This document shows positions 108 through 50,691 of a stretch of DNA of 64,000 bases, in pieces. The number at the start of each line of letters is the position of its first letter. Within the stretch, counting starts at the first letter, position 1. A program made the position numbers and the translations under genes. This DNA comes from Psammoneis japonica (lineage: Eukaryota): contig QPGO01000030.1 of assembly GCA_008632985.1 (NCBI GenBank), forward strand, positions 62,001-126,000, given 5' to 3'. The notes under the pieces were generated by a model, which worked only from the letters and a program-made list of their open reading frames with translations, was not told the origin of the DNA and did no database searches.

Positions 108-307
108 GTGTTCTTTCTTGCAGGACTGCAACTGTCCTTAACAAAACCGTTGTATGACCTCAAAACTTTTGGCTTTCACCACACCTCACTCATGCATCTT
201 GCTCTTTGCTGTGAGGGCATTGAACACAGTGCAGCAGGCAGCCAGGCTGGCACCACCAAGAAAGCGCTGGCCAAAACAATGGAGCGAGCCTTTTGTGGCA
301 CACCACA

Positions 308-703
308 TGCACTGTGCTCGGAGAAGGAGTGCAGACAAAAGTGGAGCAAATCACAAAAAGCAAAAAGTGGAAAATCATGAGATGAGATTTGCTTTGGGAT
401 TTTGGGTTTCTCCAAATGAGCTCTCAATGCCCCAAGGCATTCTTTGCACTGCTTCCACAGACCAAAGGCCTTTCGGAGAATCCGGCAGTGATGCAGATTG
501 TCTGGATGCAATCAATTGACACCTTGCGTGTCAACATGGTCTGTTGATCAATTTGCACTTTTTGACATCCAACCAAGTCTGTGTGATTGACCTGCCCTTT
601 GTGCGCACACTTTCGGCTGTGGTGTGGTGTGCCGTTGACATGTGCGAGACAATGCACAGCTGCGAACGGGCATGTTTCTTTCCACTTGGCAGCACATGCT
701 GCA
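308..703 (-). mobile_element. Solo LTR, diverged relative of the LTRs at 3648/6576
   Basis: Starts TGCACTGTGCTCG like the LTRs at 3648 and 6576, shares internal blocks (AAAAGTGGAAA, AAAGGCCTTTCGGAGAA, CAGATTGTC) and ends GCTGCA. Flanked by CACA / CATG, a plausible mutated 4-bp TSD. Confidence 0.7.
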
Positions 704-1814
704 CATGTTCTTGTGTGCAAAGCTTGAGAGTCGAAAGGCAAGTCTGGCATTTTGCATGGAAAGATGGTCCTGAGCCCCCTGTTCCTCGTGCGTTCATCAT
801 CACCATCACAAAGGATGGTTTTTGTGCTTTTCCAGCGAGGGATGACTTTGGTTTTTTTTTGAACAAACGTGGCACCAGGTGCAAAAACCAGCACATGCTC
901 TCCCAGCATGCTGACAAACCACTTCCCTTCTGTCCCAGGGAGTGCTGCAGATCATTTCTTGTCATTCTGTGCAGCTTGGAGCATCACCATCATGCAGCGG
1001 CCATTCATGGAAAGGTCTTTGATGGTTTGTTTTGAGTCAAGTGAGCATGCTGCACACAGCCCTCTTTCCCCTTTGTGAGCTCAGATGGACAAGCAACAAC
1101 TTCCAAGAAAGCAGTGCTCGCTTCATGCCAGATGCAACTTTTGTGCGCTTTTGAGGTTCAACATGGAAGAGTCTGATGAGACAGTTGGTGTGAAGCAGAC
1201 ACCCCAACCAGATGGCCAGGTGTCAGAGTCTGTCTCTCAAGCCAAAAGAGTGGCGCAGGTGAGTCACACAACAAAGACAACACCCAAGTCAGCCAAGAGG
1301 GTCAAGAAGCTCTTGCAGCAGAGCAAGGTGCAGAAGGTTTGGATGACAGCTCCTGTGATGTGCAAGGTGGAGACATGCTTGCCCAGTTGCTGCAGAAGCA
1401 AAGTGGGGAATTTCTTGTTGAGAAAAGCCATCAGCAGCTGGGAGAAGATGGACTGGATGCCAAGGTGATGCGCGAGTGGGGCATCTTGGACTCTGACAAG
1501 CTGCTTTTTGAATCTTCTGACCATCACAAGAACATGATGCTCTTCATCTGGAGAAAGAGATGAGGCCAATGTGGCTCTGAGATGCCTTGGGAAGAAACAA
1601 TGAACAGGTCGTGCACATCAGCAACAGCTCATTGTTCTTGCAGCTCTCCTTGCAATGGCAAAAAACATGGTCTTTGATGAAGGAACCCAGGCACAGGCAC
1701 CCTCTAAAAGCGCGCTGACCACAACAAACTTGACTTTCTGCAGGCCATCCAGAGGGGACACTGGGATGGGCTTTTTCTGTGTGGCTTGAGTGCGGCAGTC
1801 ACAACAGCAGTGGC

Positions 1815-2114
1815 NNNNNNNNNNNNNNNNNNNNNNNNNNNNNNNNNNNNNNNNNNNNNNNNNNNNNNNNNNNNNNNNNNNNNNNNNNNNNNNNNNNNNN
1901 NNNNNNNNNNNNNNNNNNNNNNNNNNNNNNNNNNNNNNNNNNNNNNNNNNNNNNNNNNNNNNNNNNNNNNNNNNNNNNNNNNNNNNNNNNNNNNNNNNNN
2001 NNNNNNNNNNNNNNNNNNNNNNNNNNNNNNNNNNNNNNNNNNNNNNNNNNNNNNNNNNNNNNNNNNNNNNNNNNNNNNNNNNNNNNNNNNNNNNNNNNNN
2101 NNNNNNNNNNNNNN
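1815..2114. other. Assembly gap (300 N)
   Basis: Run of N. Confidence 1.
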
Positions 2115-3647
2115 GTGTGTCAAGTTGTCCACAGTTGAACAAGAAGGGCAATTGATCAGAAAAATGTTGGTCAAGAAATGTGCACGGAAGTGGCAAAACA
2201 ACTGCAAAACAATGACCAGCACAAGGGGCAGTGCACTGAAGTCTTGGCTGACAGCTGTGGCAATCAATGCAGCCAAGCGATGTCAGCACATCTTCATTCT
2301 TTGCAGAGCTGCTCTCGTTGGACCATTGGAATCTGCCCCACAGATGGAGGACAGGAAGAAGTGCACAATGCTGGCTGGCACCTGCAGGCAAAGGCGCTGT
2401 GGCTGCATGGGAGACAATGTGTGGGCGACTCGCAAACCTGCAGCCAAAGCTTTGCCAAAGCTCATTTCTCACTTTTCTGGCTGGCCTTCTTGGAGCATCA
2501 TGCGCACAATTCAACCAAGCTCTTGTTCCTCACAAGGCTGGCGGCAATGAGTGCCAGCAGCGGGGTGTGGGGCACCTGCAGGAGACAGCTTTCTGCCTCC
2601 ATTCACCGCCTCCCATCTCTTCTAAAAGTGGCAGATTTGTTGTTGATGACAAGAAATCAAAACAATGAGATGCAGCTGCGTTGACCACCGCTGCCTCTCA
2701 CATTTTGTTTTGCCACCACTTGGTGCTCTCATCTCATGACAGGCAGCCCTGGGCCTGTTCAGACCCACTGCTGTGAGTGTGCACAAACCAGCTTGAGCAA
2801 GAGGAGCAAACCACATGCGCCAGCATTCTGCACAACAAGTTTGTTGCTGTTCCTTTGTCAGAAAAGCTCTCAAAGCCACAGCCAAGGGTGCACATCAAGC
2901 AAATTTGTGGCGGCTCAGTGGGCACATCAGGAGACCAAGCATTGACTGGGGAGACTTGGAGCCCAGAGCTGGAGGAAACTTTTGGAGAAGGGGCTGCCCC
3001 ACGTGACACTCCAGAAGGCAAAGCTCAAGAGCAAGAAACTCTCAGCATCTCCTGGAGGTTGTCAGCTGCCAGTGTTCCCCTCCAATCCAGACTCACACAA
3101 CCTGCTGCCAACCGCAGTTGTGCTGATGACACAAATGATGCAGCACACCAGAGGTGCAGAGTTGGAGAGGAGCTGTGGCAGTGAACTCCTTCATGCCTTC
3201 AACAAGATCCTCAAGAAACCCAATCCTGCGCCAGCCAACATGCCAAGAGTGCGCTGGCTGGCTCTTCATGAGAGACAAAGCAGCGGGCAAAAGGGGGGCA
3301 CTTCTTGCTCTGCACTGTCAGATGAGAAAACCTCTTGGGCTTGAACTCAGAGCCAAGTGCACTGCCTTTCAATGGGGAGCAGCTGCAAAGCCAAAAGTGG
3401 ATCACCCAAATTTTGATTGGAGCTTCCAAAAAAGACCCCCAAAGCACTGCATGTCATCATGAAGGTGTGTGTCAGTCCCTCCCAGCAGGTCAACAAGATT
3501 GCAGCCAAAAAGCTGTGGCACGTGAGAGCAAGGAAGATGATTTTGGGACTGCAGCCAACTTGTGCCCCATGTTGCTCATCTCCTGCCATGATGTGTCACA
3601 CCCCAGATGATGTTTTGAAGGGTGTCAACAAGCTCACTCAGCACCAG

Positions 3648-4014
3648 TGCACTGTGCTCGAAGAACGAGTGCAAACGAAAGTAGAGCAGTGTGCGAAAAG
3701 TGGAAATTGTGAGGTTGAATTTTGCTCTGTGATTTTTGGTTTCTCCGAACGAGTTCTCAATGGCCTGAAGCTTCTGCACTGCTTCTGCAGACAAAAGGCC
3801 TTTCGGAGAACACATTCGTGACAACAGATTGTCCGGGTGCGATTGCCATTGACACATGAGATGTCAACATCGTCAATCGATCGCACTTGCAATTCTCGAC
3901 ATCCGATCAACTCTGTGTGATCGTTCTGTCCTTTGCACGCATCCACGACTGTGGCGCGATTGACACGCAAATGATGTGTGATCACAAATGTGTGTGCAAC
4001 AGTCGCGTGCTGCA
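3648..4014 (-). repeat. 3' LTR of the Gypsy element
   Basis: Direct repeat of 6576-6942, colinear with no indels and about 33 transitions by hand count. Confidence 0.95.
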
Positions 4015-4027
4015 TTCGCCTCCCCAA
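4015..4027 (-). promoter_or_regulatory. Polypurine tract (plus-strand primer)
   Basis: Minus strand reads TTGGGGAGGCGAA immediately before the TG of the 3' LTR. Confidence 0.8.
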
Positions 4028-6575
4028 TTGCACACCAGAGTCATTTGCAAGTGGACTGTTCGACGGACATCGACAGTGTCAACAATGTCTCCACTTTCAC
4101 TGTGTTGTGCCATTGGCAATGACTGTTGTTGTTTTGTGTGGGCAACGCAGGGCCGCTCCAATTTCCGAATGTCTTTTGAGAGTGACATTGTTTGTTTCTC
4201 ACTTGACATGTGCACACACAGCATTGCGTCGAGCACTCTCATTGACGTTCTTGTTGACATGAACACAAGGACCAATTGTCCTGGAGCAAGTGTTTTTCCT
4301 GACATCGATTGCACACAGCATCGTGCCCAGTGCTTAATGCACGCTCTTGGTCACGGCGTTCACTTGCTTGCTTGTGGATTTCATGCAGTTTGGCGGGCTT
4401 GCTTTGTGTGCCATGTTGCTCTGCTGCACTGCCACGTTTCACAAGCAATGACAAACGATGGTCAAAGATGTCATGACCATTTCGTCTTGACAATCAAATC
4501 CTGTGATGGTTGTGAATTCCATTGTGGATTTTTTTTTTTGCACTTCAACCATCTGTCAGTTGGATTTTAATCGTCATTTGGACGTTTCTTTCTGACATGC
4601 CGGCGCCATTTTGTCATTCCGAAGGCACTGGTTTCGTGCACCAAGTGGACAAATGTCCATTTTTCTTTTCTTTTTCTAGATCTTTGGCACATCTCGTGTG
4701 TCAACATGATGCACATTTTAATGTCTTGCCTCGTACATTGTACAATACAACCGTACGGGTGTTGTGAGATTGTCTTTTGCCAGTGTGAAGTGGATGCGTA
4801 TAATGTACACCAATCTGTCACTGTTTTTTCCTAAATCGTCCTTTAAAAAGGCGATTTTATCCTTGTGACATGAGCATTTTTCGATCTCGCTCGCCTCCAC
4901 GAAAAGTGTTCGTATGATATGTCGCGTCCGACAATTTGGAGGGAATGTCTTTATCCCGTTTTAACGGTAGGACATTGTCGTAGGATTCAATTTTCTATAG
5001 TAAGTCGGCTGATCGCGTCTATCGCGACGATGTTCGCCTTGCCCTCGTTGTATTCTAATTCGGGACTGAAGTTGTCAACGTATGACTTTGTCCGTTGTGT
5101 CTTATGATCCGTATATGTATAAATCTGTTGGCCAAACAGTATATTTCGGAATTTTATAAGTGTTTTCACTATGGACAGAAGTTCTTTTTTTCGTTGTAAC
5201 GTATAATATTGAAATCCGTGTATGATAACAATATAGTTTTTGATTTGATACGCTCCATATTTTCGGAGACTTTTCGTTCCGTACTTGTACTTTTGCCGTT
5301 TGACCTTTATTGAGGTGAATTTGGCTAGTATTGTACAGGAGATCGTTGAGACTACATGTCTCGATAATAGTAACGTATGACAACGAGATGTCGTAGTGTT
5401 CTTTACGTTTTTCTCGTGTTGCGATTGCTTGAATCGCCTCCATTTTCTTTGTAATCGATTGCATATCGTTACGTATGGAAGTCTTGATAGTTTATTTCAA
5501 GTTAAATAGTGAAGGACTTTTGTTGTTAACCTTCTAAGCGACTGTTCTAGTCGTTTGAATGCCGTATTAAGCTGTCACTTGTACAGGTGATATTTTGAAG
5601 TTACTTTTGTCAGGCACAAACGATCACACACAGTCGTTCTGACAACTTCAAACCTGTTATGAGTTCACTCAAGTGTTGTATAAAAATATCTGGGGCTCTA
5701 TAGATTCTCATTGGAAGTCCACAGCACTCATTTTCTCCCCACGGCATGATTTTCGTGTGAGCACGACGTGTGCTTTTTTTATTTGACATGGTGGCATTCC
5801 ATGTTTGAATCAAATAGATTACATTATGAAACGTTCTTGCTTCAATAGTGTTTCCTGAATATTGGGTAAAGGATACACCACCTGTATGAACCTTACACTA
5901 AGCTTCTGAGTGTCGGGTGCGGTCGAACTCGACCTGTTTTCTTTGGACAATGAGTCTCAGAGCGACTTGTTCAGAGTGATTTCATTCTTAAGACTTCAAT
6001 CTTTCATAATAGGTCAAACTCCTTTTGATTGGACGCCTCCAAAGACTATGATAGGAGAAGGTTCTCACGCGTCGTGGAATCGCGTCAGATTTTCCACGAT
6101 GAGATCCGCTGATGCTTCCCATGCATTCGTCTGAGGAACTTTTCAAAACGATTTCAACCTCTTAAGAAGAAGATTGAGTTGGTTGTGTTCATTTGGGTTA
6201 GATGCATCGCCGTAGTTGTCACTTGATTAAGATCGATGGCGTGACAATGTGAGTCGAGGACCATTGGTTCCGTCATTGACTCCATTCACGGCGTCACATT
6301 TTTCAATGTGATCGGTTTTCAGCTTGAAAACATCGGCATCGAAGAGTGTGTGAACATTCTTCATAAGGTAATTGCTTCTTCCCATTAGATTTCTGCATTT
6401 GCGTAGTCCAATGTGACTTGCAGGACTGGACATTAAGTCGCGTCCCATGATCACATCATTTGAACCTGAAGAAAATTTGGTGTTTTCAACATGTGCTGTT
6501 TGAATGTCAGTGTGCCTTAAATTTCGCATGGTGAGAACTGAATTTGGTGTTTACTGTCAGTCGTAAAGAGCTCAA

Positions 6576-6942
6576 TGCACTGTGCTCGAAGAACGAGTGT
6601 AAACGAAAGTAGAGCAGTGTACGAAAAGTGGAAATTATGAGATTAAATTTTGCTCTGTGATTTTTGGTTTCTCCGAACGAGTTCTCAATGGCCTGAAGCT
6701 TCTGTGCTGCTTCTGCAGACAAAAGGCCTTTCGGAGAATGTGTTCGTGACAACAGATTGTCCGGGTACGATTGCTGTTGACACATGAGATGTCAACATCG
6801 TCAATCGATCGTATTTGCAATTCTCGACATCCGATCAACTCTGTGTGATCGTTCTGTCCTTTGCACGCATCCACGACTGTGGCATGATTGACGTGCAAAT
6901 AACACACAATCACAAACATGCACACAACAGTCGCGTGCTGCA
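6576..6942 (-). repeat. 5' LTR of the Gypsy element
   Basis: Direct repeat of 3648-4014. Confidence 0.95.
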
Positions 6943-9900
6943 CCAGCGCTTCTTTTGCACTCAAGCCATTGGCCAAACAGAGCACAGCTTCAGCCCATCA
7001 GCCATTTCTGGCAAATGCCAGCATCAGACAGGAAGCAAAGAAAAAGTTGTTGCAAACTTTGCAAGAGTCATGAGGTGGGGTTTGTGATGAAATCAAGGGA
7101 AAAAACCACCTGCAGAGGCTTGTTGAAAAACTCTGACACAACCAGAGTGCTCAAAGATGACTCACTGCAGAGCATCCTGTTTGCAAGATGTGCGGACACC
7201 CTGGCCTTCCACCCAGTGCCAAACCAGGCCACTGCACAGCACCCACAGAGGCAGCACATGTGTGCTGCAAATTAAAGAAGAAAGACAAGGACCTGCAGCA
7301 AGATGACTTTAAAACAAGATCAGTGCAAAAGGTTGAAGCCAACGGCGCCATTTTGGAGCATGAAAAAAAGGCCATCACAAGATTGTGGGAAATGTCAAAT
7401 TGGTGTCCAGAGGAGGGAAACATCAGAACTGCTGGGGGAGCCTTGGTGCAGCAAAAGATCCTCTGAACACTGGCCTCATTTGTGTGGAAGAGTGGTTGTT
7501 GGCATTGTCAGCCTGTTGAAGAGATGCAAGGAGCTGTTTCCATCCCACACAACTGGGGGAGAGTTGGGTGGAGATTTGCCAACTGGAGATTGTCGAAGCT
7601 GGGAAACCCTGGGAGAGCATGTGTTGCTGTGCTGGCTGGGCAGACCACTGGATGTGCAAGTTGCAGCCACATCTAAAAGCTTGAGACAAGTGGGTGGGGG
7701 GGTCAAACAAGAAGCAGGCACCTGAGCCAAATGGAGGCATGGATCTCATTGATGGCTGGCATCATGTGGTCCATGGAGCACCCACTGGCCACAATTTCAC
7801 TTGCCAAGAAATGGTGTAAAGAGACAGAAAAGTCATTGCTCAAAGCAGCCCAGCCAAAGCTGGAACACCAAAGATCCTCTTCAAGAAAGGTGTCATGCCT
7901 GTCCCAGAAATTTAATGGCGTTGGTCCAATGAAGCTCTGCATTGCCTGGGACCTTTTGAAGCTGTGAGACTCTCATCAACAAGATGACTCTCCATCAATG
8001 GCAGGCTGCAAGAGACACGCTGGTCTTTAAACTCACTGTGTTTCAAAAGTTGGTGTGTCCAGACAGCTGTTTGCCACACACTTGTGCCAGTTTGGAGCAA
8101 CCTGAGCAAAAAAGTTGCTGACAAAGTTGCTGTGGAAATTCTGTTTCAAACATGGTGTTGATCTGCTCACCCTGGCCCGACCAGGCTCCCCCCATGCAGC
8201 ACCAACAACTCTCATTCCTGACAGAGCTGTTTGCCAACTTTGGCTGCAAAGGAGAAATGCTGTGCAAAACCATCATCTGCAGGGGATGGGGGCAAATGTG
8301 TGGTGTGCACGTGTCTGATGCAACAAATTGAAATGGGGCCAGAGCTGCACCAAAACATTGGTGGAGGTGACCCATGTGACTCCCACCACTGTGAACAGTC
8401 CAAAGCTGGACTCCTTCCAAATCTTGCTGAAGACTCTGACACAGGAAGCTCTCACCATGTGGCACTTGTCTGCAGGGTGGGATTCACATCTTAGATGGAG
8501 ACTCAGGAGCCAGCTCAGGAAACCAGTTTCTCCTTGGCTGTGCTCAGTGGCTGGTGAACAACAGAGTGCTCAAAGTGCCGCAATCCACAACAGAGCACTG
8601 CTCCAGACTCCTGGGGCAGTGCAACCAATGCAAGCAAGTGGTGTGTTGCTTCACCAGATGGATTTAAGAAGCACCAACAGATGCTCATCCTGCAGTGCTC
8701 AAATGCTCCAAAGTGGGGGGTCACCAAGAGCACACCAAGGGACACCAATTCAACCCAGCTGGAAGAGATGGAAGAACCAGAGATGAGTGGTCATGTGTTT
8801 CCCACAAGTCAAGTCCAGTTGAGGTGCCTCCCATTGAAAAAATCCTCACCAGTGGAGGAGGAGCCACCAGCATGACCCGTGGCTCCTTCAAAGAGGCTGT
8901 GGCAATGGCCACAATGACTTGTCTTGTCAAACTGGAAAATCTCATCTCACACAGGTGCTGAGGAGCCAAGCCAAACTCAACATCAACTCTCTGACCAAAA
9001 CACAGACAAAGGAGAACTTTGGGGCATCTGCAGCACTCTGCACAAGCTGATGCTCTTGTGCAAAGTGCACATTGTTGATGGAGGCAAGTTTGTCATGGGC
9101 TGCAACAACTGTGACTCTGCCCTCTGTGCATGCAACCACAAACAAATGCAATGCCCCCAGGCAAGCCAGCTGTGATTTGATGAACACAATGCCCCCAGGC
9201 CAGCCAACTGCAATTTGATGTGCCAGGTGAAGAGGATGCAAAAACTGCCAGCCATTGCAGCAGTGCTGGCACAAGAGCTGAAGGCAAGGACACTGAGGTG
9301 TCAAGAGCTGGACCCAAGCAAACTCCACACCTTGAAGCATCAAATGCAGAGACAGATCTCTTGACAAAAGCCTGCTGGCAGGTGCTGGCAGGCACTCCTG
9401 TGCCATTTGACGTGGGACAACAGATGTGCTGGGGGGTGCAAATCTTTGTGGCAGACAAAGCATGGTGGCTCACATGTGGAGCTTCACTTGGGGCACAGCA
9501 TGGTGGCATCACATGTGCGCCAACAAATCCAAAACTTCTGAGCATCTGAAAATTGTGACCACATTTTGGGCAGGTGTGCCAAGGGAAAACACAAGGCAGA
9601 GCTGCCACAGCTGCTGCGCCAGAGGTGCATGAATCGTCTGTTGTCGTTTGTGCACATGCATTTACGCACTCAGTGTGACGCATGGACAACAAGATGATTT
9701 GTGCACCTCTGTGCTGCACCTCTCAACCCTGTCCATCTCCAGATGGCTCACCTGGCTGGTGAAGTGTGCCCAAGCTGAAGAGCCAGGTGGGCTGCAAATT
9801 CTGTTGTGGGGCTGGATGAAGCATTGGCAGCAAAAAAGGCTGTTGCTTTGCTTGGCACAACACTGGCTAAAGCCCCTGGCAAAGAGCCTCAGCTCTGTGT

Positions 9901-10100
9901 GGCACATCTGCCCACAGCTGTGAATGTGGATTTGCGCATGCACTGCGGCGCAAACTGGCACTTCTTTTATGCTGTCCATGGCTGTGAGTTGAGTGTTGCA
10001 CAAGGCATGACTGAGCTTGTTGCAGAAAGCAGCTCTGACAAGATCTGCACAAACTTTGAGGCTGAATTGTTGGTTGACAAACTCTGGAGCTGTGAGAGAC
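6943..10100 (+). mobile_element. Decayed non-LTR (LINE) retrotransposon with RNase H domain (diatom Ambal-like); probably continues left of the Gypsy insertion
   Basis: Fragmentary motifs in order: post-RT region (PKLEHQRSSSRKV..FNGVG ~7860-7925; KLLWKFC ~8125), RNase H-like pieces (GSFKEA ~8880; KGELWGICS..LC..GCNN ~9010-9110; NAETDLLTKACW ~9340). Heavily frameshifted and TA/CG-depleted. Boundaries approximate. Confidence 0.6.
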
Positions 10101-10949
10101 TCAGGGTGACCACCACTTCAAACTGGTCCTTCGATGGGGTTGTTTTTTGACACACCAGGTCAAACGCAGCTTTCGCTGGGGAAGGAAGATGCATGTCCAC
10201 CAAAGTTGACTGACAATCAGCAAAAATCAGGCAGAAGTGGGCTGGCAGTTTGCTTGCACACACAAAGCACTGCAGCAAAAACACTGCACCACCCACTCAC
10301 TGATGATTTGTGTGCGCGCCAGCAGGACTTCTCAAGAAAAAGTGCTTGTCAAGAAGCTCGCTTGTGGCACAAACGCCACACAAGCAACATTGCTCAGCTC
10401 TGGCATGTCAAATGCTGGGTGCAGCACCAGAAACAAAACAAAGCAAAAGGTTGTGGGAGCTGGCTGGGAAGTGCTTCTCATTCTTTCACCTGTTGTTGGT
10501 GCGTGGCAGGCACTGTGTGGTGGCACACCAGTCAAGAGACATGACGGAAGCTCTTGAAGGAAAGCAGCAGGTGCTTTTTAACAGCCAGACAGCCTGCTTT
10601 GTGAGCACACCATGGCTGGCAGCATCGATGGGGCATGGGCTGGCACAGCCGCAAGCAACAAAAAGGGTGTTTGAAAAGCACCCGAAAAGACATGTTAAAA
10701 ATTGAACGGGGATTGAGGGACGGGAGACGACAGACGCACATGATTTGTCCGATTTTCCGAAAAAGAGGCCTTTTGACCTCTTCGGAGTTCTCGTTGCGCC
10801 GCGTTCGCAGAAAACAAAAACACCGACGTCCACAAGATCGCACACAAAACAAACCAGGAAGATCAAGAAGACCTCCTTAGCTACAGCAACGAGAAGAACG
10901 ATAACAGTTGCATCGCCTACGATCGAACAAGAGAAAAGAACAAGACATC

Positions 10950-16551: not shown

Positions 16552-18252
16552 AGCATGGGTGACTAAAGTCGATACGCAAGACTACAGGAGCGAAAAAAAC
16601 GCGCCGCAAACGACCAACGCCAACACAACCATGATGTTGATGGTTTGAAACGTTTTGAAAAACGAATCGATACAGCACCCGTGCCATTGCCACATGATTA
16701 CAAAACTTGCTTTCACCACGGGAATGCCCCTTCTTCGAGGTTCGCACGGTACGTACTTTCTACGAGACTTTTGTACCAAAGACTGATGAGAGCGCACCGA
16801 ATCTCTTCCTCGGTCGAGTCGCCATAATTTTCAGAATCGCTTCTGGTTCACAGGTCAACCATGAAAGTTATTCATAGCACCCTCTTCTTCACGGCCGTTG
16901 TCTCTACCATGAGCACTGGTGCCGTCGCCAACCCTCTTCCTGCCTCGCTTGTCAACGCTGCAAAGCGCGGTGCAAGCTCGTTTGCGATCAAGGCGACCGA
17001 GACTATTGCAACGATCCGTAAAGACATCCAAGGCAAGTTTATGGCTGTGATCACTCCCGTGGATATCGAAAGCGTCTCCAACGATTACCACAATATCGTC
17101 AGCAATGCCGCTCCCAGCACTACGCCCTTTGAAGAAACTCTCGTCGACTCGAGCTTCTGCGTTTCGTTTGACGACGCCGGGTCGCCCAACAGCTGGGTCC
17201 AACAACTCCTTCGTAACACGACCCCCACTATTGTACCAGTGGAAGCTTCAAACACGTTTTGCGTCTATTTTGAGAATGACAATGGGGACTCCAACGCCGC
17301 CAGTCTCTCACGAATCCTCCACAACAACACTCCGCTTCGAGAACCAACCGCATCGTCACTCAAGACCAGCACTTTTTTGGAAATTGTTTGGGAAATCAAG
17401 TCGGAAATGGCATCAGACACGTTCAGCACGGCTCTTTTGGATATTAAGTCAGGAATGCATCGTATTTGGAACCTTGTAGACGACATGTCGACACGCTTTG
17501 TCACGGAATTGCAGACTCAAGCGACCGTTTTGCAATTGCGCAATACTACTACTACGCAACTTCAGAAGCCAACTTTGTGGAAGCCCGATGATATCGAGTT
17601 CGGGCCGAGCAATTGGTGGAAGAGAGTCGAAGAAGTGTCAAAGTGGGTTCAGACTAGCGTCTCGCAAGGATTCAGGACGACTGCTGCGTCGTTGGGACAG
17701 AAAACCATGTCGACGATCGACGACTTTGGGTTGAGGGAGCACAAGTGGTGGAAGAGAATCCAAGACTTGTCGGAGTTGCTTCAAACCAGCGTTTTGCAAG
17801 GAGGCAAGACGACTGCTATGTTGTTTCAGAAGCCCGACGAATTCGAGTCGACGCTTGACAATTGTTCGAAGAGAATCGACGACATTCAGGCTGCCGTCAT
17901 GAAAGACATCAAGACGTTTTCGCGGCTTTTAGAACCCATTTCTGTGAAAGAGGTCATTGACAATTTGTGGAAAAGAGTAGACGACGTGTCCGAGCGGATT
18001 GAATCTGTTTTGGGCTTTTTACGAATCTCAACCCTGCAAGTGGGACAGAATGCAACCGAAGCGGTTGGGAGTCTCGATTAGCATCTTGGGACGCATAGTA
18101 CTAGTTAGTCACGAGGGGAAAAGTATAGAGCAATATTAATCATGCACCGTCACTACTTTAGCTAGTTGAAATACACAGTGCAATACTTGGAATCGCAGAA
18201 CAGTCCCTCCTTTAGCGAGTTGAATTGAGCGAGTTCTGAGAACTAGAGATTT
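16552..18252 (+). repeat. Left arm of a ~1.7-kb inverted segmental duplication
   Basis: Reverse complement of about 22688-24391, including upstream and downstream flanks. Confidence 0.95.
16861..18081 (+). CDS. Hypothetical secreted/targeted protein with helical WKR[VI] repeats (copy 1)
   Basis: Intact 406-aa ORF with a hydrophobic N-terminus, kept open in both duplicates. Confidence 0.8.
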   Translation: MKVIHSTLFFTAVVSTMSTGAVANPLPASLVNAAKRGASSFAIKATETIATIRKDIQGKFMAVITPVDIESVSNDYHNIVSNAAPSTTPFEETLVDSSFCVSFDDAGSPNSWVQQLLRNTTPTIVPVEASNTFCVYFENDNGDSNAASLSRILHNNTPLREPTASSLKTSTFLEIVWEIKSEMASDTFSTALLDIKSGMHRIWNLVDDMSTRFVTELQTQATVLQLRNTTTTQLQKPTLWKPDDIEFGPSNWWKRVEEVSKWVQTSVSQGFRTTAASLGQKTMSTIDDFGLREHKWWKRIQDLSELLQTSVLQGGKTTAMLFQKPDEFESTLDNCSKRIDDIQAAVMKDIKTFSRLLEPISVKEVIDNLWKRVDDVSERIESVLGFLRISTLQVGQNATEAVGSLD

Positions 18253-20609
18253 ATTCTACAGAGTGTAGTGTACCCTGGGTAATTTTGATTGCTCAATTGG
18301 ATGAATGCTATCATCGCTGTAGGACTGAATCCCATACAGGACTCGATCATTGTCAACCTGGATACAAGCACTCCAAAAAATAAAGCAGAAAGCCCGAAGC
18401 GAAGAGACAGGCCCAGACGAATCAGCACAAAGGCGCTTCGAAAGCGGGAGTGTTGAATGAATCACAGTCGAGTACAGAGGTCCGTGCAGCTGAAGAAGGC
18501 GCTAGCAGTTTGCTCAGTAGACATCACAAGCCAAGTGCAAAGCCACGTATGGCTTCCGGGTTGTCGTTGGTGCTGACAATCTTAATGTACTTGTCAACGA
18601 CACGCATTTGCAAGTTTGCATAGAGAGAAATTTCACAATATAAGCTTGACGAGTCCACGAGTCCTTCCGAGGTTGATCACAGAATCAAGCTACACGAGTA
18701 CTCACTTGCTGTTTCACGGTCAAGGGAAGTTAAGCAAGACAAGTACAATCCATCAGTCTACAAACAGCAGAGCGCATGATTTCTCCTCTAAGTCTAGCTT
18801 TTTCGATTTTTGACTTCCAGCTGGCTTAATTCAGCCAACGTCCCTGTTGATCCCGTATCCTTTTGGTCCCTCTTCATTGTTCCAAGGGCCAACACAGCCT
18901 CCGCCAAACCCAGAACAGCGCTCCATGACGAGTCAGGAGATTCGTATCTGTGCAGCTAGGCAAAACAAATGGCACGACGGACATGACGAACTAGTAGGTA
19001 TCCAGCGGCACAAACCCGGCCAGGACCTGGGACTCAAGCTTCCAAATATCAGCGTCCCACAATAGAAGATCTTGACGGTACAGGTGGTGAATGGTTGGCC
19101 TTCGGTATTGTTCAGACTCAACGACCTGTTGTGCGACTGACGTGTAGGCGTCGTTTCGATTCCCCAGAGAGTAGTATTCTGCGCGGTGAGAATGAAACGC
19201 CGTGCTTGAAGTTCTGCAGATATGAAAGAGCAAGAAAAAGGGTCAACATGATGAGTGCAACTACCGCAAGTCATCCACAATGTCGCCACCCACACTACTT
19301 ACATCAGCACTCTGTCGTCCAATGCATTCTGAAAGGCCGCACTCGCCGCTCGGTGAAAATTGATTTCTCGATCAAACGAGCACGTTACAATTATGGATTC
19401 ACCGAGCTCCGCTACGTCTGGTTTCAAGTCAGAGGGAGCATAGGATAGGCTCGTGCAAACGCCCGGCATGCCGCATCTCTTGCGTGCGCTCCAACGCTGC
19501 TGTGGCCTCGACGGACATCCTACTGCACAACAAAGAAGAAAAGAAGGATAAGCTCTAGAGTGAATACTTGCGAGCACCTCCAAACCATCATGACTCAACA
19601 ACACGCTCTTCACCAATCTCACCTGTATCGCGTTTACGACGACCCACACCACATCTTGTAATCGATTGGGCAGGGAGCAAGACAATACGGTAGCCAGCCC
19701 CATCCTTTCTTGGATGTTCAAACTTTATCAACAAGGAGATAAGACATCGTCGGCACAAACCGAGGGTCATCTCTCTGTGATTCGCCCTATACCCTTGGCT
19801 TCCGACCATCGAATATCGGTAGCAGAGCATCCGTCAAGGACGCCATCGTCTTCGACGAGATCAACCACCTCCATTAACCAGGCTCCGCTTTCGTCGCAGT
19901 CTTGCGCCACGGAGGTTGACATGTCGTTGTGAACCGATTCTTCTGGTGGCGGCGCTGTCTTGGTAGCGCTAACGCTAGACTAGGTTTTCAGCAGCAACAA
20001 CCTTCCCACTCAGGGCAGCGAGTGAGCACATGCCATGCGAGCAAACCACTTTTGTTTGCATGAGCTCCATCATTAGAGATCAATTGGAGCATGTTTTGCA
20101 AATACCCACCATGCACTGCATGACTCCCATTTTAGAAGTATGAATCCGCATCCGGTTCTTGAAGAATGATGTCTTTGGAATAGCTTTAGAGTGCTTTGAG
20201 GTGAGATTGCAACTCCGGTCTCGACAACCAAGAAGCCAAACACCAGGCTGCCGTTTCACAAGGTAGGGCATGGTTGTTTGTTCAGAACAAACATTGTTTG
20301 TCCAACTTGATACAGATTTCCAACACATCCACAGATAAACAGATTCTCATTCCGCATCTTGTTGCTGCTGTAAAGACTTGTTGTGCTCCTCTGGCGTCAT
20401 TAGCATTGGTTCAACATCGCTCAACTCGTGTGATCAAGTCGAATTTTCTTGCGGCCTTGTTTTCGAGCTGACTGTTGTAGAAACCATTTTTCAACACATG
20501 GATCAAAAGTCATGACCATTTGTGTACAGTTCAGCGCAAACAGCAAGCACAAAAGAAAACACAAAAATGATGCTCGCATTTCTTCTGGTTCTTCTTGTAC
20601 CAAAATACA

Positions 20610-25699: not shown

Positions 25700-28600
25700 A
25701 AGTCTTTGCAAGTCAACCCCGTGGACTGTCAGCTCTTGTTTTGTCCATTTGGTGGAGGCGAACTAAAGATCTGGTGCAGCTTGCCAACATCAACGCTTGG
25801 GAGAAATAAAAAATGAAAGCATGAGCTGCGGCTTGAAGAAAAGGCATCGAGAACCTGCGTGATCATGGTGTGTCGAAAGGTGGCATGGGTGCCAAAACAA
25901 TGTGACTCATCAATTTTGTGAAACATGTTGTGCCAGGGGGGGCATGAACCCAATCACTGCCAGAGCTCAGCATTCTTGAGTGGTTGTCATGACGTTTTGT
26001 GGCAAATCTGTCACTCTGATGAGATGAGTGGCACCTCTGCTTCTTTTGCGGATGGTGCCACCTGAAGAGATGGTGTGCTGTAGAAAAGTGTTTCAGTGCT
26101 GCTTCTGGGCCTCTTGAAGACAGAATTGCAAATGCCCACATCTCTCCAGTGGTCTCTGACTGATGAAGAATGCCAGCCTGCAAAGGGCCATCTAACAAGT
26201 GCTCATTGCAATGAGTGGCTTTGGCCACTGCAGCTTCCACTGGCAACAACAACAAAAAAGGTGCTTCATCCACTGCTTGCAACACTCAATGTGCCAAACC
26301 ACATTGAACACACCCTGTTTCAACACAAAACAGCCCTGTTGTGGTTCCTCATGATGTTGGTGGGGCATTGTGAACAACAAGTTGCTGAACACACAACAAC
26401 TCCCTCAAACAAAGATGCACTGCCACAGGGCTGGTGGGAACATTTCTTGTTTGGGAGAAGAGCCCTCTGGTTGTTCCTGGTTGGCTCAAGCCATCACAAT
26501 TTTTTCCTCATTTGGCATGAGAAAAAAATTAGTGTCTCACCTTCTTTGAGCACTGCATTTGTTCATCCCAAGGTGATTTGCTTTGCACTTTGCTCTCACC
26601 TGTTGCTGTTCCTCCAACTCACATGCTCAGGTGCACAAGGAGCACCATTTCTCCCTTGTTTGTAATGCTTTCAATGTCAAGGGTGGGGCAAATGCCAGAG
26701 GAGAGTGTGAGCATTCCATCTTGTCTCACAATCCTTTAAAAAAGTTTCTGTCTTGCCCCCTCATTGTCAGCAGTGGACTCTGCTCTCAATGATGACATCA
26801 TGCAGAGAGACATGTTGAGAAAAGCACTTGTGGGCTCAAACAACACTTGGATTTGCCAACCAGTCTTGGCTGCTGCTTCCTCAAAAGTCATCAATGCCAG
26901 TTGCTTTTTGTGCTCAAAATTGGCTGCTGGGCCAGTCCATGACTTCTCAACAAAGCTTTGACTCCAAAAAGTCAGCCACCCGCTCTTGGTCAACCCGGCT
27001 CTTGTGGCCATCACAGCCAACATTGTCATCTCCCTTGAGATCACTGTGCCATCACATGGAACAAAAATGTGTTCAGTTGGAGTTTTTGTGCCTCTGTTGA
27101 CAAAAATGTTGTTGCCAAAGAGCTTGCTCCATGCTGCAGAAGAGTCAAACTTAGAAAGCTTTGCTTGGCCCAGGGGGGCACTGTGGTGAGCCAATTGTCA
27201 AGAGCAACAGCAACATGACATGCTGGCAAGGCAGTGGCAAGCATGTTTGGTTTGGCACTCATGTGGGTGTTCAAACATGGCAATCAGATGCTGCATTGTG
27301 TGAGCCAGCTGAGCAGCTTCCCCGGGCATTTGCCATTTTCTTGTTTGGCACATGCACAGGGGAGCAACAACTCTGGCTGTGCAACAGTTGTGAAACTCAG
27401 CGTGATGCCAATGACTTTGGGCAAAAACGTTGCAAGTGCTCCCAAGAACCAGCTTCAGGGTTGAGTGCACTGTGGTTGAACAAACACAGTGGTGTGTGTG
27501 GAGCAGTGGAAAGCAGCCACGGGGCTCCACATCAACAACTTCTCACCAACAGACAGCTGTGTGGATCATCACAGCATGGGCTGCAGCAGACGTGGCAGGC
27601 AGCTGCAATGTTTTGCTTCACAACTCCTCCTTGTGGCAGTCCTTTGGGTTGGAGTTCCCAGTCATGGTGAGGCTTGTCTCTTTTTTGGGGCGCCCCTCAA
27701 GCAAATTTGTTGCACAGCCACTGGAACGGTGCATGGCTGACACAGTGCAAAAGGTGGGAACCTCGGTGGTGCACAACACTCCTGTGCCCTGCAAACAAAG
27801 GGTCGTGAAAGCCAAGATGCTTTTAAAATGGGCCAACAAAGTTGCTGTTGCAGCATGGCAAAATGGAAAGAGGGGCGCCAGAGACCAAAATGACCAAGCA
27901 GCGCAGTGTGACTTTTGGAGTGGTGGCCTGGGGGCCAGCAGTGCTGTGAAAAGTGGCCTTGTTGAGCAAAAACAAGATGCTCTTGAGGTGAGCCAGCATC
28001 ATCTCTCAGCACACAGCAGTCACACAGCTCTTTTGGTGGTGGACAAATGAGACATCACAGCTGAGTCTCTGACTCTGTTCAACCTGAAGGCGCGCAGTTT
28101 GTCCGGGGCAGAATTTGGCATCAGGATGAGGGCATGGAAGCTGATCAGATGCTGAGTCACCACCACACCTTGAGAACATCCCATCTGTGTTTGAGACCAC
28201 ATTTTTTGTCGCTGCTCACTCAGCGATGGAGAGGTGACATGTCTGAGGGGTGTTGCCAAGGGCAGCACACTCCCACTCATTCAATGCCGAGGAGGTTGCA
28301 TCATTGAAGAACTTGAGAGCCATGCTGCAGCAATTCAGAGTTGGTCAAATGTGATCACTTGGAGAAATCTGCTCCAACAGCAGCATGAGCAGTTCTCTTG
28401 GTGGTGTTTTTGAGAAGTGTGCGCCGGGAGACACACCCACTCTCCAGCACCGCTTGCAAAGAAAGCTCTGGGGAGTGTGCTGGTGTGGATCACAAGTGGC
28501 AGTTGTCAACAGACTAAGCTTGCAAATTGTGAGACTGCACGGAAGTGTCCTGAGAAGGTGCAAGTGTCCTGGAAAGACACTTCTCACCCCAATCAACAAA

Positions 28601-30482: not shown

Positions 30483-30712
30483 CATGCACTGTGAGCAGAG
30501 CAATTGGTGAGGATTGGAGTTCCAGAACGTTGGAGCTCAGCCGAATTCATGTGACATGAGAACACGCTCTCAATCATGCTCACACCGTCATCCTCGTGTT
30601 CCTTTCATGCACTGTGAGCAGAGAAATTGGTGAGGATTGCAGTTCCAGAACGTTGGAGCTCAGCCGAATTCATGTGATTTGAGATGATGTTCTCAATCAT
30701 CCTCACACCGCC
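30483..30712 (-). repeat. Tandem duplication, 123-bp period, at the 3' end of the DEP-ARM gene
   Basis: 30483-30589 matches 30606-30712 (HMNSAELQRSGT.ILTN.SAHSA twice). Confidence 0.9.
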
Positions 30713-33328
30713 ACTCTTCTCTATTTCAAACCAGCACTCAAAGTCTACAGAGAGTGCCTCCAGAGCTTGGAACCCACTGCTCAAGACCGCTATGTCATTG
30801 CTGTGATGTTGGATTGCATTGAGAATAGTGCAGCATCCACCGCAGCCAATGATCTCACTTCGAAACTCGACACTCTCCCCGTTACTTGCTATGGCACCAA
30901 TTGCAGCGCACCCGTGCTCTTGGACTTCGGAACTCTTTAAATGGCATTTCATCGCCCATACCACATTCAACAACAATGATCGCTTTTCACTGTTGCGCCT
31001 CTGCTGGGTCATATCCCGCAACGAACGAAGCGCACACGATATGCTTTTCTCGGATGAGCGACAGTCAGTCAGAATTTCCTTTGCTTGTTCAAGACTCATG
31101 CTCGGCAATGACGACGACGACGAAGAAGAAGCCGACGTTGTCGATTCTACAGTGACTCGTTCCATAAAAGATTGCTCCAAGGACTGTTGTTGCGCGCGCG
31201 ACATTTCAAGGTAATGTAATACAGTGTCCGCATTCCCTTGACATTCTTTGTTGGAAAAGCTATCCGCCGCCTTTGTCAACACCGCAACCACGCCACTGCA
31301 CTTTGCAAGCGTCTCCACATTCTTTTCCTCAAACATGTAATTCTTCAAAGCAAAGCACGCCGCCGAGACAACCAACTCGCTCGCCGGATGAGCAACCATG
31401 GCGCCGACAATAGCATCAATTTCTTCCCTTGACGCAATCGTCACGTATTGGTTCTCTATGTCCACTGCCGAGTTGGACAAAAAGGCAATACCGTCTCTTT
31501 GGATCGCCATTGCTTGCGCCACGGTAAGATTCCCATTCAATTCATGCACTGTACTGCGTACCTCTTGGAGCGAAGAAAACGTCCGAAGCGCTCCCACCGC
31601 GGCTTGTATCACTTTGGCATTCCCTGCGTGTTCCCTTGCAGCTCTCAGTATCAACTCCACTGCTCCAAGAGTTGAGATCTTTGCGCGATTGCTCTTGTCC
31701 AGTGACAGAGACCATAGCACCCTGCACGCTTCTTCTTGCACTCGTGACGAGCTCAGTAGAGTCTCCATGGCCTTGATGATGTCTTTTGGCGCACTGCAGG
31801 ACATTATGCTTGCAATGTATTCACTCTTCTTCTCGTTGTCAGATTTGCACACGTGAAAAAAGACGCCGAGACAATACACGACAACGGGTGCGGCACGAGA
31901 GTGCGTCGTCATGGCGCTCACCAAAACATCCACAACCACTGAACAATCCCCACACGTCATGACTTGCGGCACAAGAGACTTGAGGTCACGAATCGTGGCT
32001 TCCGTATTCTCCCCTCCGTTCCCTTGAGAACCTTCGAGAGACGATGCGTCGACACTACTGCTTCTTGATTGACAAGAGTGCTGCCGCGACAAGGGGCGAT
32101 ATTCCGTTTCTGGTGACTCGCCGTAGCGAAGAGAGGCAGCTGGGATTGAATTCGCTGCACTGGAAACCTCGCCGTATCGCCTTGTCGATCGAGGTCGTGC
32201 AGAAGAATGACCTCGTTTGGACGATGTCGATACTACTCTAATACCCATGCTGTCCGTAGTAGAATGGCTAGATACCGACTGATCCTCATGAATACTGGTG
32301 GAAGTAACTTGCGCAGCACATCCGCTTGCATCTTTTGAATGGTCTCTTTCCAAAAAGCTGTCCAGCTCAGAGCATGATGGATCAAACCGAGAGGACGAAC
32401 CATTTCCAGACTCACTCAAATCAGTGGACGCACGCAAGCTATCATCCTCCCTTGCAACATTTCTTCTTTTCTTTCTTCGACTCTTGCGAGCACCCACTTG
32501 TGGATGACACTGCAAACAACAGCCATGAAGGCTCTCACCCTCGACCGAAAGTGGGATAGAGGTGCGGCTCAGGGGATTGATTCTGCTTCGGCGCACGTCA
32601 TAAAGACGTACCGGATCGCCTGGGCACTCGGGACAATACCCCAGTCGAATGCGTTTTTCTCGAATTTCTTGTCGGGAGAGCACCGACCCGTCCCTGTCCA
32701 AGCACATGTCTCTGTAATTCAATCCAAGAGACGAGCTGCTGCTGCTCATGCCGTTGTGAGACGATGAGTTTTGAATTCGTTCGGATGAATGTCTCGACAG
32801 AAAGCGGTAAAAGTAGTACCCGTCTTCGAATGGGTGTTGTCGAGTCACGTGCTCAAATAGATCGTATTCCTCCGCCATGGCACGACCCAACCGGACCGCC
32901 TCTGTTCGACTAGAGGCCATGTTGTTGTGGAGCATAAAATCCACTGCTTCGCTGCCGACAAAACATGACTTGTAAGTTCTCGCGTGGTATCGACGGTCAC
33001 TCACGACAATACCATCTCGAAATTCGGCACATTCATCCCAGAGTGGTCGTCGTCGTTCCGTCTCGTGTGACGACGAAGTACGTAATGACGACCCACGACT
33101 CTTGGATGAGACGGGCACACACTCGGCTGTAATAATTTCATCATGCTCTGTATTGTTGTTGCTCCTCCTTTCAGATGATCTACGTCTATCGGAACCATTC
33201 GAAGAAGAGACGGGGGCACACTGAGCTGTAATCATGGTTGCACAATGGAAGCGTTGTACGGTATGTTGCTGCTTCTTGTGGAGCTGATGTTTGGGTGCCG
33301 CCATTCTATCCGCTTTCGCTTCATTCAT
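30605..33328 (-). CDS. DEP-domain + armadillo-repeat protein
   Basis: DRRYHARTYKSCFVGSEAVDFM...FEHV..HPFEDGYYFYRF (DEP domain); multiple VQEEAC/VQEHGC ARM-type repeats. Confidence 0.88.
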   Translation of the reverse strand: MNEAKADRMAAPKHQLHKKQQHTVQRFHCATMITAQCAPVSSSNGSDRRRSSERRSNNNTEHDEIITAECVPVSSKSRGSSLRTSSSHETERRRPLWDECAEFRDGIVVSDRRYHARTYKSCFVGSEAVDFMLHNNMASSRTEAVRLGRAMAEEYDLFEHVTRQHPFEDGYYFYRFLSRHSSERIQNSSSHNGMSSSSSSLGLNYRDMCLDRDGSVLSRQEIREKRIRLGYCPECPGDPVRLYDVRRSRINPLSRTSIPLSVEGESLHGCCLQCHPQVGARKSRRKKRRNVAREDDSLRASTDLSESGNGSSSRFDPSCSELDSFLERDHSKDASGCAAQVTSTSIHEDQSVSSHSTTDSMGIRVVSTSSKRGHSSARPRSTRRYGEVSSAANSIPAASLRYGESPETEYRPLSRQHSCQSRSSSVDASSLEGSQGNGGENTEATIRDLKSLVPQVMTCGDCSVVVDVLVSAMTTHSRAAPVVVYCLGVFFHVCKSDNEKKSEYIASIMSCSAPKDIIKAMETLLSSSRVQEEACRVLWSLSLDKSNRAKISTLGAVELILRAAREHAGNAKVIQAAVGALRTFSSLQEVRSTVHELNGNLTVAQAMAIQRDGIAFLSNSAVDIENQYVTIASREEIDAIVGAMVAHPASELVVSAACFALKNYMFEEKNVETLAKCSGVVAVLTKAADSFSNKECQGNADTVLHYLEMSRAQQQSLEQSFMERVTVESTTSASSSSSSSLPSMSLEQAKEILTDCRSSEKSISCALRSLRDMTQQRRNSEKRSLLLNVVWAMKCHLKSSEVQEHGCAAIGAIASNGESVEFRSEIIGCGGCCTILNAIQHHSNDIAVLSSGFQALEALSVDFECWFEIEKSGGVRMIENIISNHMNSAELQRSGTAILTNFSAHSA

Positions 33329-43121: not shown

Positions 43122-43302
43122 CGTCACCGCTCACTTTGAACTTGCTTTTGGCTTCTTGTTGACTTTGTCTTGTGCGTGTGGATGCGCTGCGCTGGAAGCT
43201 TCTCCGCTTTTTTTCGCGAGACGCGAGAGCGCGCCGCAAGTAAAACACCCATCCCCGCCCCGTCCCTGACCTCGAATGGTCCGCAATCAGTGATTCCGAA
43301 TT

Positions 43303-43320
43303 CTCTCTCTCTCTCTCTCT
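43303..43320. repeat. (CT)n microsatellite at the edge of a TA-depleted block
   Basis: About 9 CT units. Confidence 0.85.
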
Positions 43321-43329
43321 GAAAGTGCT

Positions 43330-48673: not shown

Positions 48674-49159
48674 GATATCATTCAGAGATGAGTGTTCTGG
48701 CCAATCTTTCTTCGTTGTCGAGGCTTCTTGGTCTCGTTCTTCCGAGTCAGTCTGGTGCGTAGCGCGCTTTTTGTGCCTGTTGAATTTGGACCAAGATTGC
48801 TTTCCTAACCGTTCGCGAGCACCAAACACGAGGGTCTGTTTTTATTGTGTTGTCTCTCTCGAATCTGCTGTATCTCGTTATCGTTGTAGAACTTGTTGGA
48901 CGTTGCAGGGTTGTGAATGAATCGATTTCTTGGAATTCGATTTTCCACTCCAGCCAACTCGAATTCGCACGTGGAGCGATTTCGTGGTATTGAATCTAAG
49001 ATAGAACTCATGTATGTACAAATTTACGTAAACTTCATGGTATCAGTTATGCGCGCGGCGCGCACACGCATCTCACACACGGTCTGGTGGGTGTCGCCAC
49101 ATACACGGAGGCGACACCCCCCGCCCGACCCATTGTGGTGCCGTTGCGTCCTTCCATGA

Positions 49160-50480: not shown

Positions 50481-50691
50481 ACAGAGGGCCCTGGCGTCAC
50501 CGTGAGTGGTCAGTCCCCCCTCAAAGGGCTAGTTTTAGTGAGTTTGGACTCTGGAGTTGCTCCAAGAGGCTCTCTACTAGAGTGGTAGACACTACAGTTC
50601 CCCTGTCATTGAATGGGGTATTGATGCTCTGTGCAATGCTGTTTTGTTCACTAACGGGGAGGACATTTTGATCAGATTCTGGTCAGATTGC

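Follow-up and report, generated by a model that had tools for sequence, protein, structure and literature searches.

The element and its terminal repeats

The sequence analysed here is a 64,000-nt stretch of Psammoneis japonica DNA (contig QPGO01000030.1), referred to in its entirety as the window, and the subject is an element at 3648-6942 which, judged by its sequence, belongs among the degenerate Ty3/gypsy-like long terminal repeat (LTR) retrotransposons and lies on the minus strand. All coordinates are window positions, and positions within the LTRs follow the numbering of the 367-bp repeat. The element is bounded by a left LTR (L, 3648-4014, minus strand) and a right LTR (R, 6576-6942, minus strand), both of 367 bp and with TG...CA ends, and by a 4-bp target-site duplication, CCAG, at 3644-3647 and 6943-6946. 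Among the features expected of a Ty3/gypsy element, we recovered the direct TG...CA repeats, the short target duplication, a polypurine-tract-like run, GGGGAGGCGAA (4015-4025, minus-strand reading), that abuts L, and the Pol order reverse transcriptase (RT), RNase H and integrase.

The closest relatives of the one decent open reading frame (ORF) in the element, as recovered in a protein search, are Pol proteins with RVT_1, RT_RNaseH, Integrase_H2C2 and rve domains. Congruently, local tblastn placed remnants of RT, RNase H, zinc finger and integrase collinearly with Ty3/gypsy-type Pol proteins, all on the minus strand. The RT remnant (5208-5953) was delineated by local tblastn and contains stops and frameshifts, and the RNase H remnant (4990-5190) reaches 21-23.6 bits against PF17917, under the cut-off of 24.8, with tblastn E-values of ~1e-13 to 1e-16 against RVT_1/RNase H/rve Pol proteins. 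The integrase zinc-finger (H2C2) remnant (4650-4958) matches Pol protein P0246 at E 8.6e-4 in the local search, while the end of the integrase core (4402-4301) and the Pol C-terminus (4141-4000), together spanning 4000-4423, yielded weak local matches with E 0.001-0.05. Stops and frameshifts interrupt every Pol remnant of the element. Because the polypurine-like run abuts L and the Pol remnants are read from the minus strand, L represents the 3' LTR and R the 5' LTR in element orientation. Only ~620 bp separate the RT remnant from the 5' LTR, and gag and protease are therefore missing; no convincing candidate for a primer-binding site was found in the element.

As the two LTRs of an insertion derive from one template, they should start out identical. 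Pairwise alignment of L and R is gap-free, with differences at 33 positions that are transitions without exception (33/33; P ~4e-7, given the 50/78 transition share of an inverted gene duplicate elsewhere in the window). At seven sites (positions 25, 46, 62, 70, 192, 237 and 326) R displays TA where L has TG or CA, and at ten dinucleotides (130-131, 164-165, 166-167, 200-201, 328-329, 330-331, 332-333, 342-343, 346-347 and 348-349) one repeat has CA and the other TG, such that 27 of the 33 differences fit a change of TA to TG or CA. The remaining six are located at positions 67 and 239, and at 309, 310, 318 and 319 in a CGCG/CATG pair. Adjacent pairs of differences number 16, compared to at most 11 when the differences were placed at random 100,000 times. 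Furthermore, the 200 positions that belong to pyrimidine-purine (YR) steps hold 31 of the differences and the other 167 positions only two, a divergence of 9.0% overall versus 1.2% outside YR steps. L is left with a single TA and R with eight, whereas CpG amounts to 23 and 21, respectively, with 20 sites common to both. This pattern is far outside chance. Realignment thus reproduced what an initial annotation, made from the letters alone, had counted by hand: the length of the repeats and their CCAG duplication, the absence of indels, about 33 differences that are all transitions, the seven and ten sites of the two types, about 20 CpGs intact in both copies, and one TA against eight.

Direction of the change

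To place L and R among other copies of the family we relied on read-derived Logan contigs from three sequencing runs, X1, X2 and X3, of which the latter two are tiny. The family is present in hundreds of copy-equivalents, with a summed X1 word depth of 6,500-38,000 on the element versus ~58 on the unique flanks, and the places that vary among X1 contigs on the element comprise 388 transitions and 33 transversions. X1 contains 0.63 of the sampled words from 3000-7600. Thus, regarding the read support that the initial annotation called for, the unique flanks are reproduced by X1 contigs, whereas the high copy number of the family prevents the 33 LTR letters from being confirmed singly. Contigs from X2 and X3 deviate from the element interior and the first third of R by 0-4 letters per 122-303 bp, and from L by 29-31 differences in 242-293 bp; as these runs are so small, they likely reflect just the commonest form of the family.

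Read from L, an X3 contig covering 3751-4043 exhibits C>T at 13 and G>A at 16 places, A>G at one and T>C at none. Among the places listed, the contig carries A at 3976, 3980, 3990 and 3996, with T at 3811 and 3813, which gives TA at 3975-6, 3979-80, 3989-90 and 3995-6, plus 3811-2 or 3813-4 or both. Hence, at least five of the ten dinucleotides that read TG in one LTR and CA in the other are TA in other copies. Since single sites appear as TG, CA and TA, a TA ancestor needs the fewest changes. The base composition points in the same direction, as the TA-bearing parts are ordinary and the TA-free parts abnormal, which supports TA as the starting state. Aggregated, these observations support TA as ancestral and TA to TG or CA as the direction of change, and the proposal of the initial annotation that the TG/CA discordant sites were formerly TA is the best reading of them. 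Congruent with its further argument, that neither repeat-induced point mutation (RIP) of the fungal type nor deamination of 5-methylcytosine explains the LTRs, 20 CpGs are intact in both LTRs and dinucleotide rho revealed no RIP-like TA excess in any region of the window.

An older LTR of the same family, at 307-607 on the plus strand and 74% identical, extends the comparison backwards in time. It resides inside a TA/CG-free tract, and all seven alignable TA sites of the young LTRs (7/7) are TG or CA in it. Of the 20 CpGs shared by the young LTRs, 12 have become TG or CA and three remain CG. One family consequently offers a series of decay, from the contig-type copy via R, in which 10 of the 18 visible TA sites have changed, and L (17 of 18) to the old LTR and finally the tracts. 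Metagenome contigs, scanned for exact matches to a degenerate pattern of the LTR, contained none.

Specificity, patchiness and sequence context

The TA sites of the LTRs are 56-94% converted, as opposed to differences at 2/167 (1.2%) of the non-YR positions. TA mutation therefore exceeds background by orders of magnitude, and CpG mutation in the element by at least 10-fold. The specificity for TpA is strong, but not absolute (27/33). Along the element the conversion is patchy: the 3' LTR and the subsequent ~600 bp are saturated, the 5' LTR is about half converted, and the RT region, retaining 55 TA per kb, is little affected. Indeed, the TA-purged part (3648-4620) contains three TA in 973 bp, with rho of 0.05 for TA, 0.86 for CpG, 1.89 for CA and 1.67 for TG, while the TA-bearing interior (4621-6575) has rho of 0.64 for TA, 1.26 for CA and 1.16 for TG.

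The unpurged RT/RNase H remnant (4985-5960, minus strand) displays a bias of another kind, with single-transition replacements relative to conserved residues of related Pol proteins numbering 17 for G>A and 3 for C>T on the coding strand (for instance E>K and R>Q). An A-rich composition, CpG decay or cytosine deamination at the cDNA stage could be responsible.

The few TA that survive in the TA-depleted tracts of the window, described below, are enriched in the context TAAA/TTTA (21/31, versus 76/571 in genes, P 4e-11, and 18/108 in the element interior, P 1e-7), examples being 1705, 2623, 7310, 7674, 26737, 27824, 43241 and 55581. This suggests that TAAA/TTTA is a refractory context or a selected motif. 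In addition, the polarised or suspected A>G changes outside TpA all occur at an A that precedes T on the changed strand (LTR positions 67, 239, 309, 310 and 318, and window positions 3837 and 6614), and the tracts and the genes differ in rho for AT (0.72 vs 0.97) and GC (1.29 vs 1.04), tentatively hinting at ApT as a minor second target; such k-mer contrasts between tracts and genes are confounded by codon usage.

TA- and CG-free tracts of the window

The window alternates between gene regions, with long ORFs and rho of ~0.5 for TA and ~1 for CG, and seven tracts that are nearly devoid of TA and mostly poor in CG. The element is located within the largest of these (154-10600), between its TA/CG-free left flank T1 (154-3647; 2 TA in 3194 called bases) and right flank T2 (6947-10600; 12 TA in 3654 bp). 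The others are T3 (25807-28515), likewise TA/CG-free, and the TA-free T4 (43241-44269, where CpG is partly lost, with 25 CG in 1028 bp), T5 (49102-50530), T6 (55581-56528) and T7 (62790-64000, continuing past the end of the window). Pooled, the tracts comprise 14,174 bp, or 22% of the called bases of the window, and hold 31 TA and 183 CG, where 465 and 890 are expected from the density in genes. Rho is 0.04 for TA (0.51 in genes), 0.20 for CG, 1.75 for CA and 1.85 for TG, and the longest gap without TA extends over 1552 bp. Nevertheless, the total of YR steps is unchanged, 239 per kb in tracts versus 241 in genes, which is the expected product of transitions within YR steps. In the tracts, TG occurs as often as CA and the two follow each other in random order, and both strands are therefore affected. 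The sole hint of strand coherence is the order of four TG followed by six CA in R (P ~0.01). T1 is interrupted at 1815-2114 by a scaffold gap of exactly 300 N.

A 6297-bp X1 contig, with a flank word depth of ~58, reproduces T2 and spans 6948-10800 with 15 other letters and 10 gaps. Among the 22 differences listed between the window and the contig in the unique flanks, 13 are exchanges of CG and TG/CA and three of TA and TG/CA; being concentrated at the remaining CG and TA, they suggest that both decays are still running. Base-calling artefacts were considered as the main explanation of the tracts and rejected, as read-derived contigs of even word depth reproduce them.

The loss of CpG follows a course of its own. 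It is not seen in the young element, is well under way in the old LTR and has run almost to completion in several tracts. Because the older tracts are CpG-poor (rho 0.20) although the young element has kept its CpG, we infer a second decay. The conversion of CpG to TpG or CpA is a separate, slower process alongside that acting on TA. Thus, the statement in the initial annotation that CpG is spared holds for the young element and fails for the older tracts that surround it. Methyl-CpG deamination in silenced DNA would be the simplest cause; LTR elements of the diatom Phaeodactylum are described, in the accessible part of the report (PMC2806351), as cytosine-methylated.

Each tract lies 5' of one or more adjacent ORFs, T4 between divergent ORFs, and some upstream regions are not tracts. 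The ORF adjoining T5 (50778-51689, minus strand) encodes only the C-terminal domain of a cation-transporting P-type ATPase (PF00689), with no recognisable N-terminal part upstream, and may represent a gene fragment.

Sequences used as controls

An inverted gene duplicate of ~1.75 kb (16552-18305 versus 24391-22636, 95% identity) served as an internal control. Its two arms differ by 50 transitions and 28 transversions in ordinary contexts, and TA/TG, TG/CA and CA/TA differences are present in its short non-coding tail. The initial annotation had postulated a repeat-targeted, TA-specific A:T to G:C mutator; the TA-specific A:T to G:C change is supported, whereas targeting of repeats is not, as this duplicate is ordinary and kilobases of TA-free DNA lack a detectable repeat in the window. 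Each arm contains a 417-residue ORF without a Pfam match. Tandem duplications were also observed within ORFs, at 17571-17825 (123-nt units, 71% identity) and 30483-30713 (108-nt units, 91% identity).

An outside control was provided by 19 eukaryote-like metagenome loci with an orthologous AAA ATPase gene, in which the longest TA-free gap is at most 197 bp, compared to the 1552 bp found here. The best named relatives of two proteins encoded in the window are from diatoms, with 57-64% identity for the AAA domain, and the best unnamed relatives reach 67%.

Alternative explanations

The rival account that survives best concedes that the process is real and places it elsewhere: gene conversion from a hypermutated copy may have overwritten L and the adjacent ~600 bp, in which case the LTR pair is no in-place record. 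The hundreds of copy-equivalents in very different states would supply donors, and the inner edge of the purged segment, near 4620, is fairly sharp. L and R however share letters that are rare in the family, namely G at 3837 and its R counterpart, where A makes up 88% of the summed depth, and G at 6614 and its L counterpart, where A makes up 97%. Moreover, the two LTRs differ by no indels and at only two non-YR positions, and we regard an import of the differences as unlikely.

CpG ancestry is less probable again, and we hold it to be very unlikely. Here the ten CA/TG dinucleotides were once CpG, with methylated C deaminated on opposite strands in the two LTRs. The changes required, CG to TG and CG to CA, are ordinary ones, the tracts undergo CpG decay (13 of 22 flank differences listed; rho CG 0.20), positions 309, 310, 318 and 319 can be read in this manner, and the old LTR has CG at two of the ten sites. 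On the other hand, 20 CpGs are intact in both LTRs, some of them within 3 bp of discordant sites, and about four sites have changed in one copy only; ten doubly hit sites beside 20 intact CpGs are incompatible with a single rate per CpG site. CpG ancestry also conflicts with the TA found in other copies at five or more of the ten sites, and leaves the seven sites of TA versus TG/CA, as well as the TA-free tracts, unexplained.

We ascribe marginally less weight still to a constraint or an artefact, that is, to selection for TA/CG-free intergenic sequence or to base-calling errors at modified bases. All seven tracts are indeed 5' of a gene, and TA and CG, being the only YR steps that are self-complementary, could undergo symmetric base modification. 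Yet the tracts are reproduced by read-derived contigs at a word depth of ~58, one of them includes a decaying LTR of a known repeat family, and the differences between window and contig cluster at the remaining CG and TA, as expected under decay in progress and not under conservation.

The reverse direction, in which L is pristine and a RIP-like C>T change at CpA/TpG (and CpG) created TA in R and in most copies, hardly merits credence, even though the X3-type contig differs from L almost solely by C>T and G>A, with at least 12 of the 16 listed changes creating TA. No copy or region combines an excess of TA with a deficit of CA/TG, as even the TA-bearing parts have rho of at most 0.64 for TA and above 1.1 for CA/TG, and the old LTR and the tracts, which represent the oldest material, lack TA instead of being rich in it. 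In addition, C>T alone, starting from one ancestral CA or TG, cannot yield CA, TG and TA at a single site. RNA editing before insertion, with ADAR-like A-to-I changes on double-stranded element RNA being fixed by reverse transcription, is equally implausible: ADAR favours a 5' U (as discussed in the accessible text of bioRxiv 10.64898/2026.01.13.699255), but the LTRs of one insertion should then start identical, the unique flanks are purged as well, and the strands of the tracts are affected to the same extent (TG ~ CA).

A probable post-insertion process at the DNA level

We consider it likely that a TA-specific A:T to G:C process, acting on DNA after insertion, hypermutated the element in non-coding DNA that was already TA-free, with CpG decay following. 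In such a scenario, a Ty3/gypsy-like retrotransposon would have inserted into TA-free non-coding DNA of a diatom-like alga, whereupon the process would turn TpA into TpG or CpA, by A>G on either strand, very fast relative to background substitution and in patches. Left running, it would produce kilobase tracts nearly without TA, and the slower decay of CpG to TpG or CpA would later strip these of CpG, giving rise to the TA/CG-free, TG/CA-rich sequence that constitutes about one-fifth of the window. The direction of the change, its TA specificity, its locality and its large excess over background are evident from the data, while the function and the agent are further removed from them. The process may serve to defend the genome against DNA that is foreign or silenced, and its agent could be a TadA/ADAT2-type adenosine deaminase with activity on DNA, a suggestion that forms the weakest step of the argument.

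Several observations weigh against this reconstruction. The direction of change is open to question at individual sites: CG in the old LTR at two of the ten discordant dinucleotides fits a CG ancestor equally well, and at 3839 A accounts for 11% of the summed X1 depth, such that the TA of R may be derived there. The initial annotation had named the state of other family copies at the discordant sites as a test, and TA at five or more of ten in the X3 contig goes its way while these two observations do not; overall, the ancestral state in other copies rests on the sites listed rather than on a family consensus. Conserved Pol residues show a weak trend in the expected direction (among single-transition changes, 7 weak-to-strong to 5 strong-to-weak in the purged part and 10 to 20 in the unpurged part) that is not significant (Fisher P 0.17). 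Other points concern targeting and origin. The RT region is nearly untouched within a purged domain, so the targeting cannot be set by the domain alone. A runs test detected no strand-coherent TG/CA patches in the old tracts (z ~0). Foreign origin is established for the retrotransposon and the old LTR and assumed for the tracts, which, apart from the old LTR, lack homology to the element or to Pfam families: six-frame translations of T1-T3 (stops as X) gave no credible Pfam family, and a purine/pyrimidine-coded comparison of the element and all tracts with the window recovered the two young LTRs, the old LTR and the unrelated gene duplicate, and nothing else. The G+C content of the tracts (0.51) also exceeds that which full conversion of TA and CG would confer on the element interior (0.40). 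Finally, the data from the window are silent on the identity of the enzyme.

A wider proposal, which we advance tentatively and at a little less than even chances, is that an old and dedicated DNA-editing defence that deaminates the adenine of TpA is common to diatom-like algae and chlorarachniophytes, acting patchwise on silenced or foreign DNA and saturated here as upstream scar DNA (about one-fifth of the window). In the boldest form, a single deaminase may erase both self-complementary YR steps, as ADAT2-type enzymes deaminate both A and C in DNA according to work cited in the accessible text of bioRxiv 10.64898/2026.01.13.699255.

Apart from its cause, the footprint has practical consequences. 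With 9.0% divergence overall and 1.2% outside YR steps, dating by LTR divergence would overstate insertion ages several-fold in such genomes. The series of substrates (young copy, half-converted LTR, saturated LTR, old relic) is suited for establishing rates and context rules, and the pattern, if a true second case, points to a natural DNA adenine editor with a preference for TA, of relevance to base-editing tools.

Comparison with known systems

The process resembles fungal RIP in being an in-place, transition-only hypermutation of mobile-element DNA that ruins coding capacity. RIP however converts CpA/TpG to TpA, with a TA-rich product, while here TA is erased and CA/TG enriched, and RIP is tied to duplication, whereas the gene duplicate of the window has an ordinary spectrum. 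Methyl-CpG deamination would explain the CpG loss of the old tracts, together with 13 of 22 flank differences listed, but at most four of the 33 LTR differences, and 20 CpGs are intact in both LTRs while L is nearly TA-free. Similar to APOBEC3, the process may amount to a deaminase-based attack on retroelements. APOBEC3 however deaminates cytosine in minus-strand cDNA before integration, in a strand-asymmetric manner without TA specificity, and cannot make the LTRs of one insertion differ.

Enzymes of the TadA/ADAT2 type offer another parallel. Engineered TadA base editors act on DNA adenine, and in the natural tRNA substrate of TadA/ADAT2 a U precedes the edited A. A-to-I conversion in DNA is read as A>G, matching the change seen here, and a link to such an enzyme is thereby conceivable. 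Amphioxus ADAT2 is an adenosine deaminase of this type that acts on DNA, according to the accessible part of the report (PMC10354150).

The initial annotation could not match the pattern to any described pathway, a position that no longer holds. Literature searches for TpA-directed hypermutation identified one relevant report, by Mettrop et al. (bioRxiv 10.64898/2026.01.13.699255), on the chlorarachniophyte Bigelowiella natans; the statements below refer to its accessible text. Mutation-accumulation lines of this alga acquired 231 de novo mutations within two integrated viral regions, of which 230 were A>G or T>C changes at TpA, and the authors place every hypermutation on TpA; these regions mutate at ~1000 times the baseline, and only some lines were affected. 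The B. natans genome moreover contains 124 clusters of windows that are poor in TpA and rich in CpA and TpG, with RT and DDE domains enriched, and the agent put forward is an ADAT2/TadA-type deaminase that works on DNA, the candidate which the initial annotation had listed first. The terms diatom, LTR and CpG are absent from that text, and a term search of two diatom transposon papers, within their accessible text, found no mention of TpA or hypermutation.

The likeness is extensive. In both cases the changes are nearly exclusively A>G/T>C at TpA, yielding TpG or CpA, and confined to certain regions, with genes being ordinary and a rate far over background (here deduced from the footprint). 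Both have long-term clusters poor in TpA and rich in CpA and TpG that include RT-bearing sequence, and in both the action is apparently patchy or episodic. The differences lie in the host, the target and the degree of saturation. B. natans is a rhizarian with giant-virus and virophage inserts, whereas here an LTR retrotransposon family and unannotated intergenic DNA are affected in a diatom-like stramenopile. The footprint is historical, as opposed to de novo mutations in B. natans, and far deeper, with rho TA of 0.04 over 14 kb, compared to B. natans values of at most 0.43 as the threshold for clusters and 0.45 in the nucleocytoplasmic large DNA virus (NCLDV) region. Unlike in the B. natans text, CpG is also lost and the surviving TA are mostly in TAAA/TTTA.

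By analogy, then, the process is probably of the same kind as the TpA-only hypermutation of B. natans. What is new is a second, independent lineage, an LTR retrotransposon as the target and a far more saturated footprint; if this is a true second case, it suggests that the process is widespread and able to shape a sizeable share of a genome. The process recorded in the P. japonica window may best be classed as another instance of hypermutation of the B. natans type, independent of the first and much more saturated.

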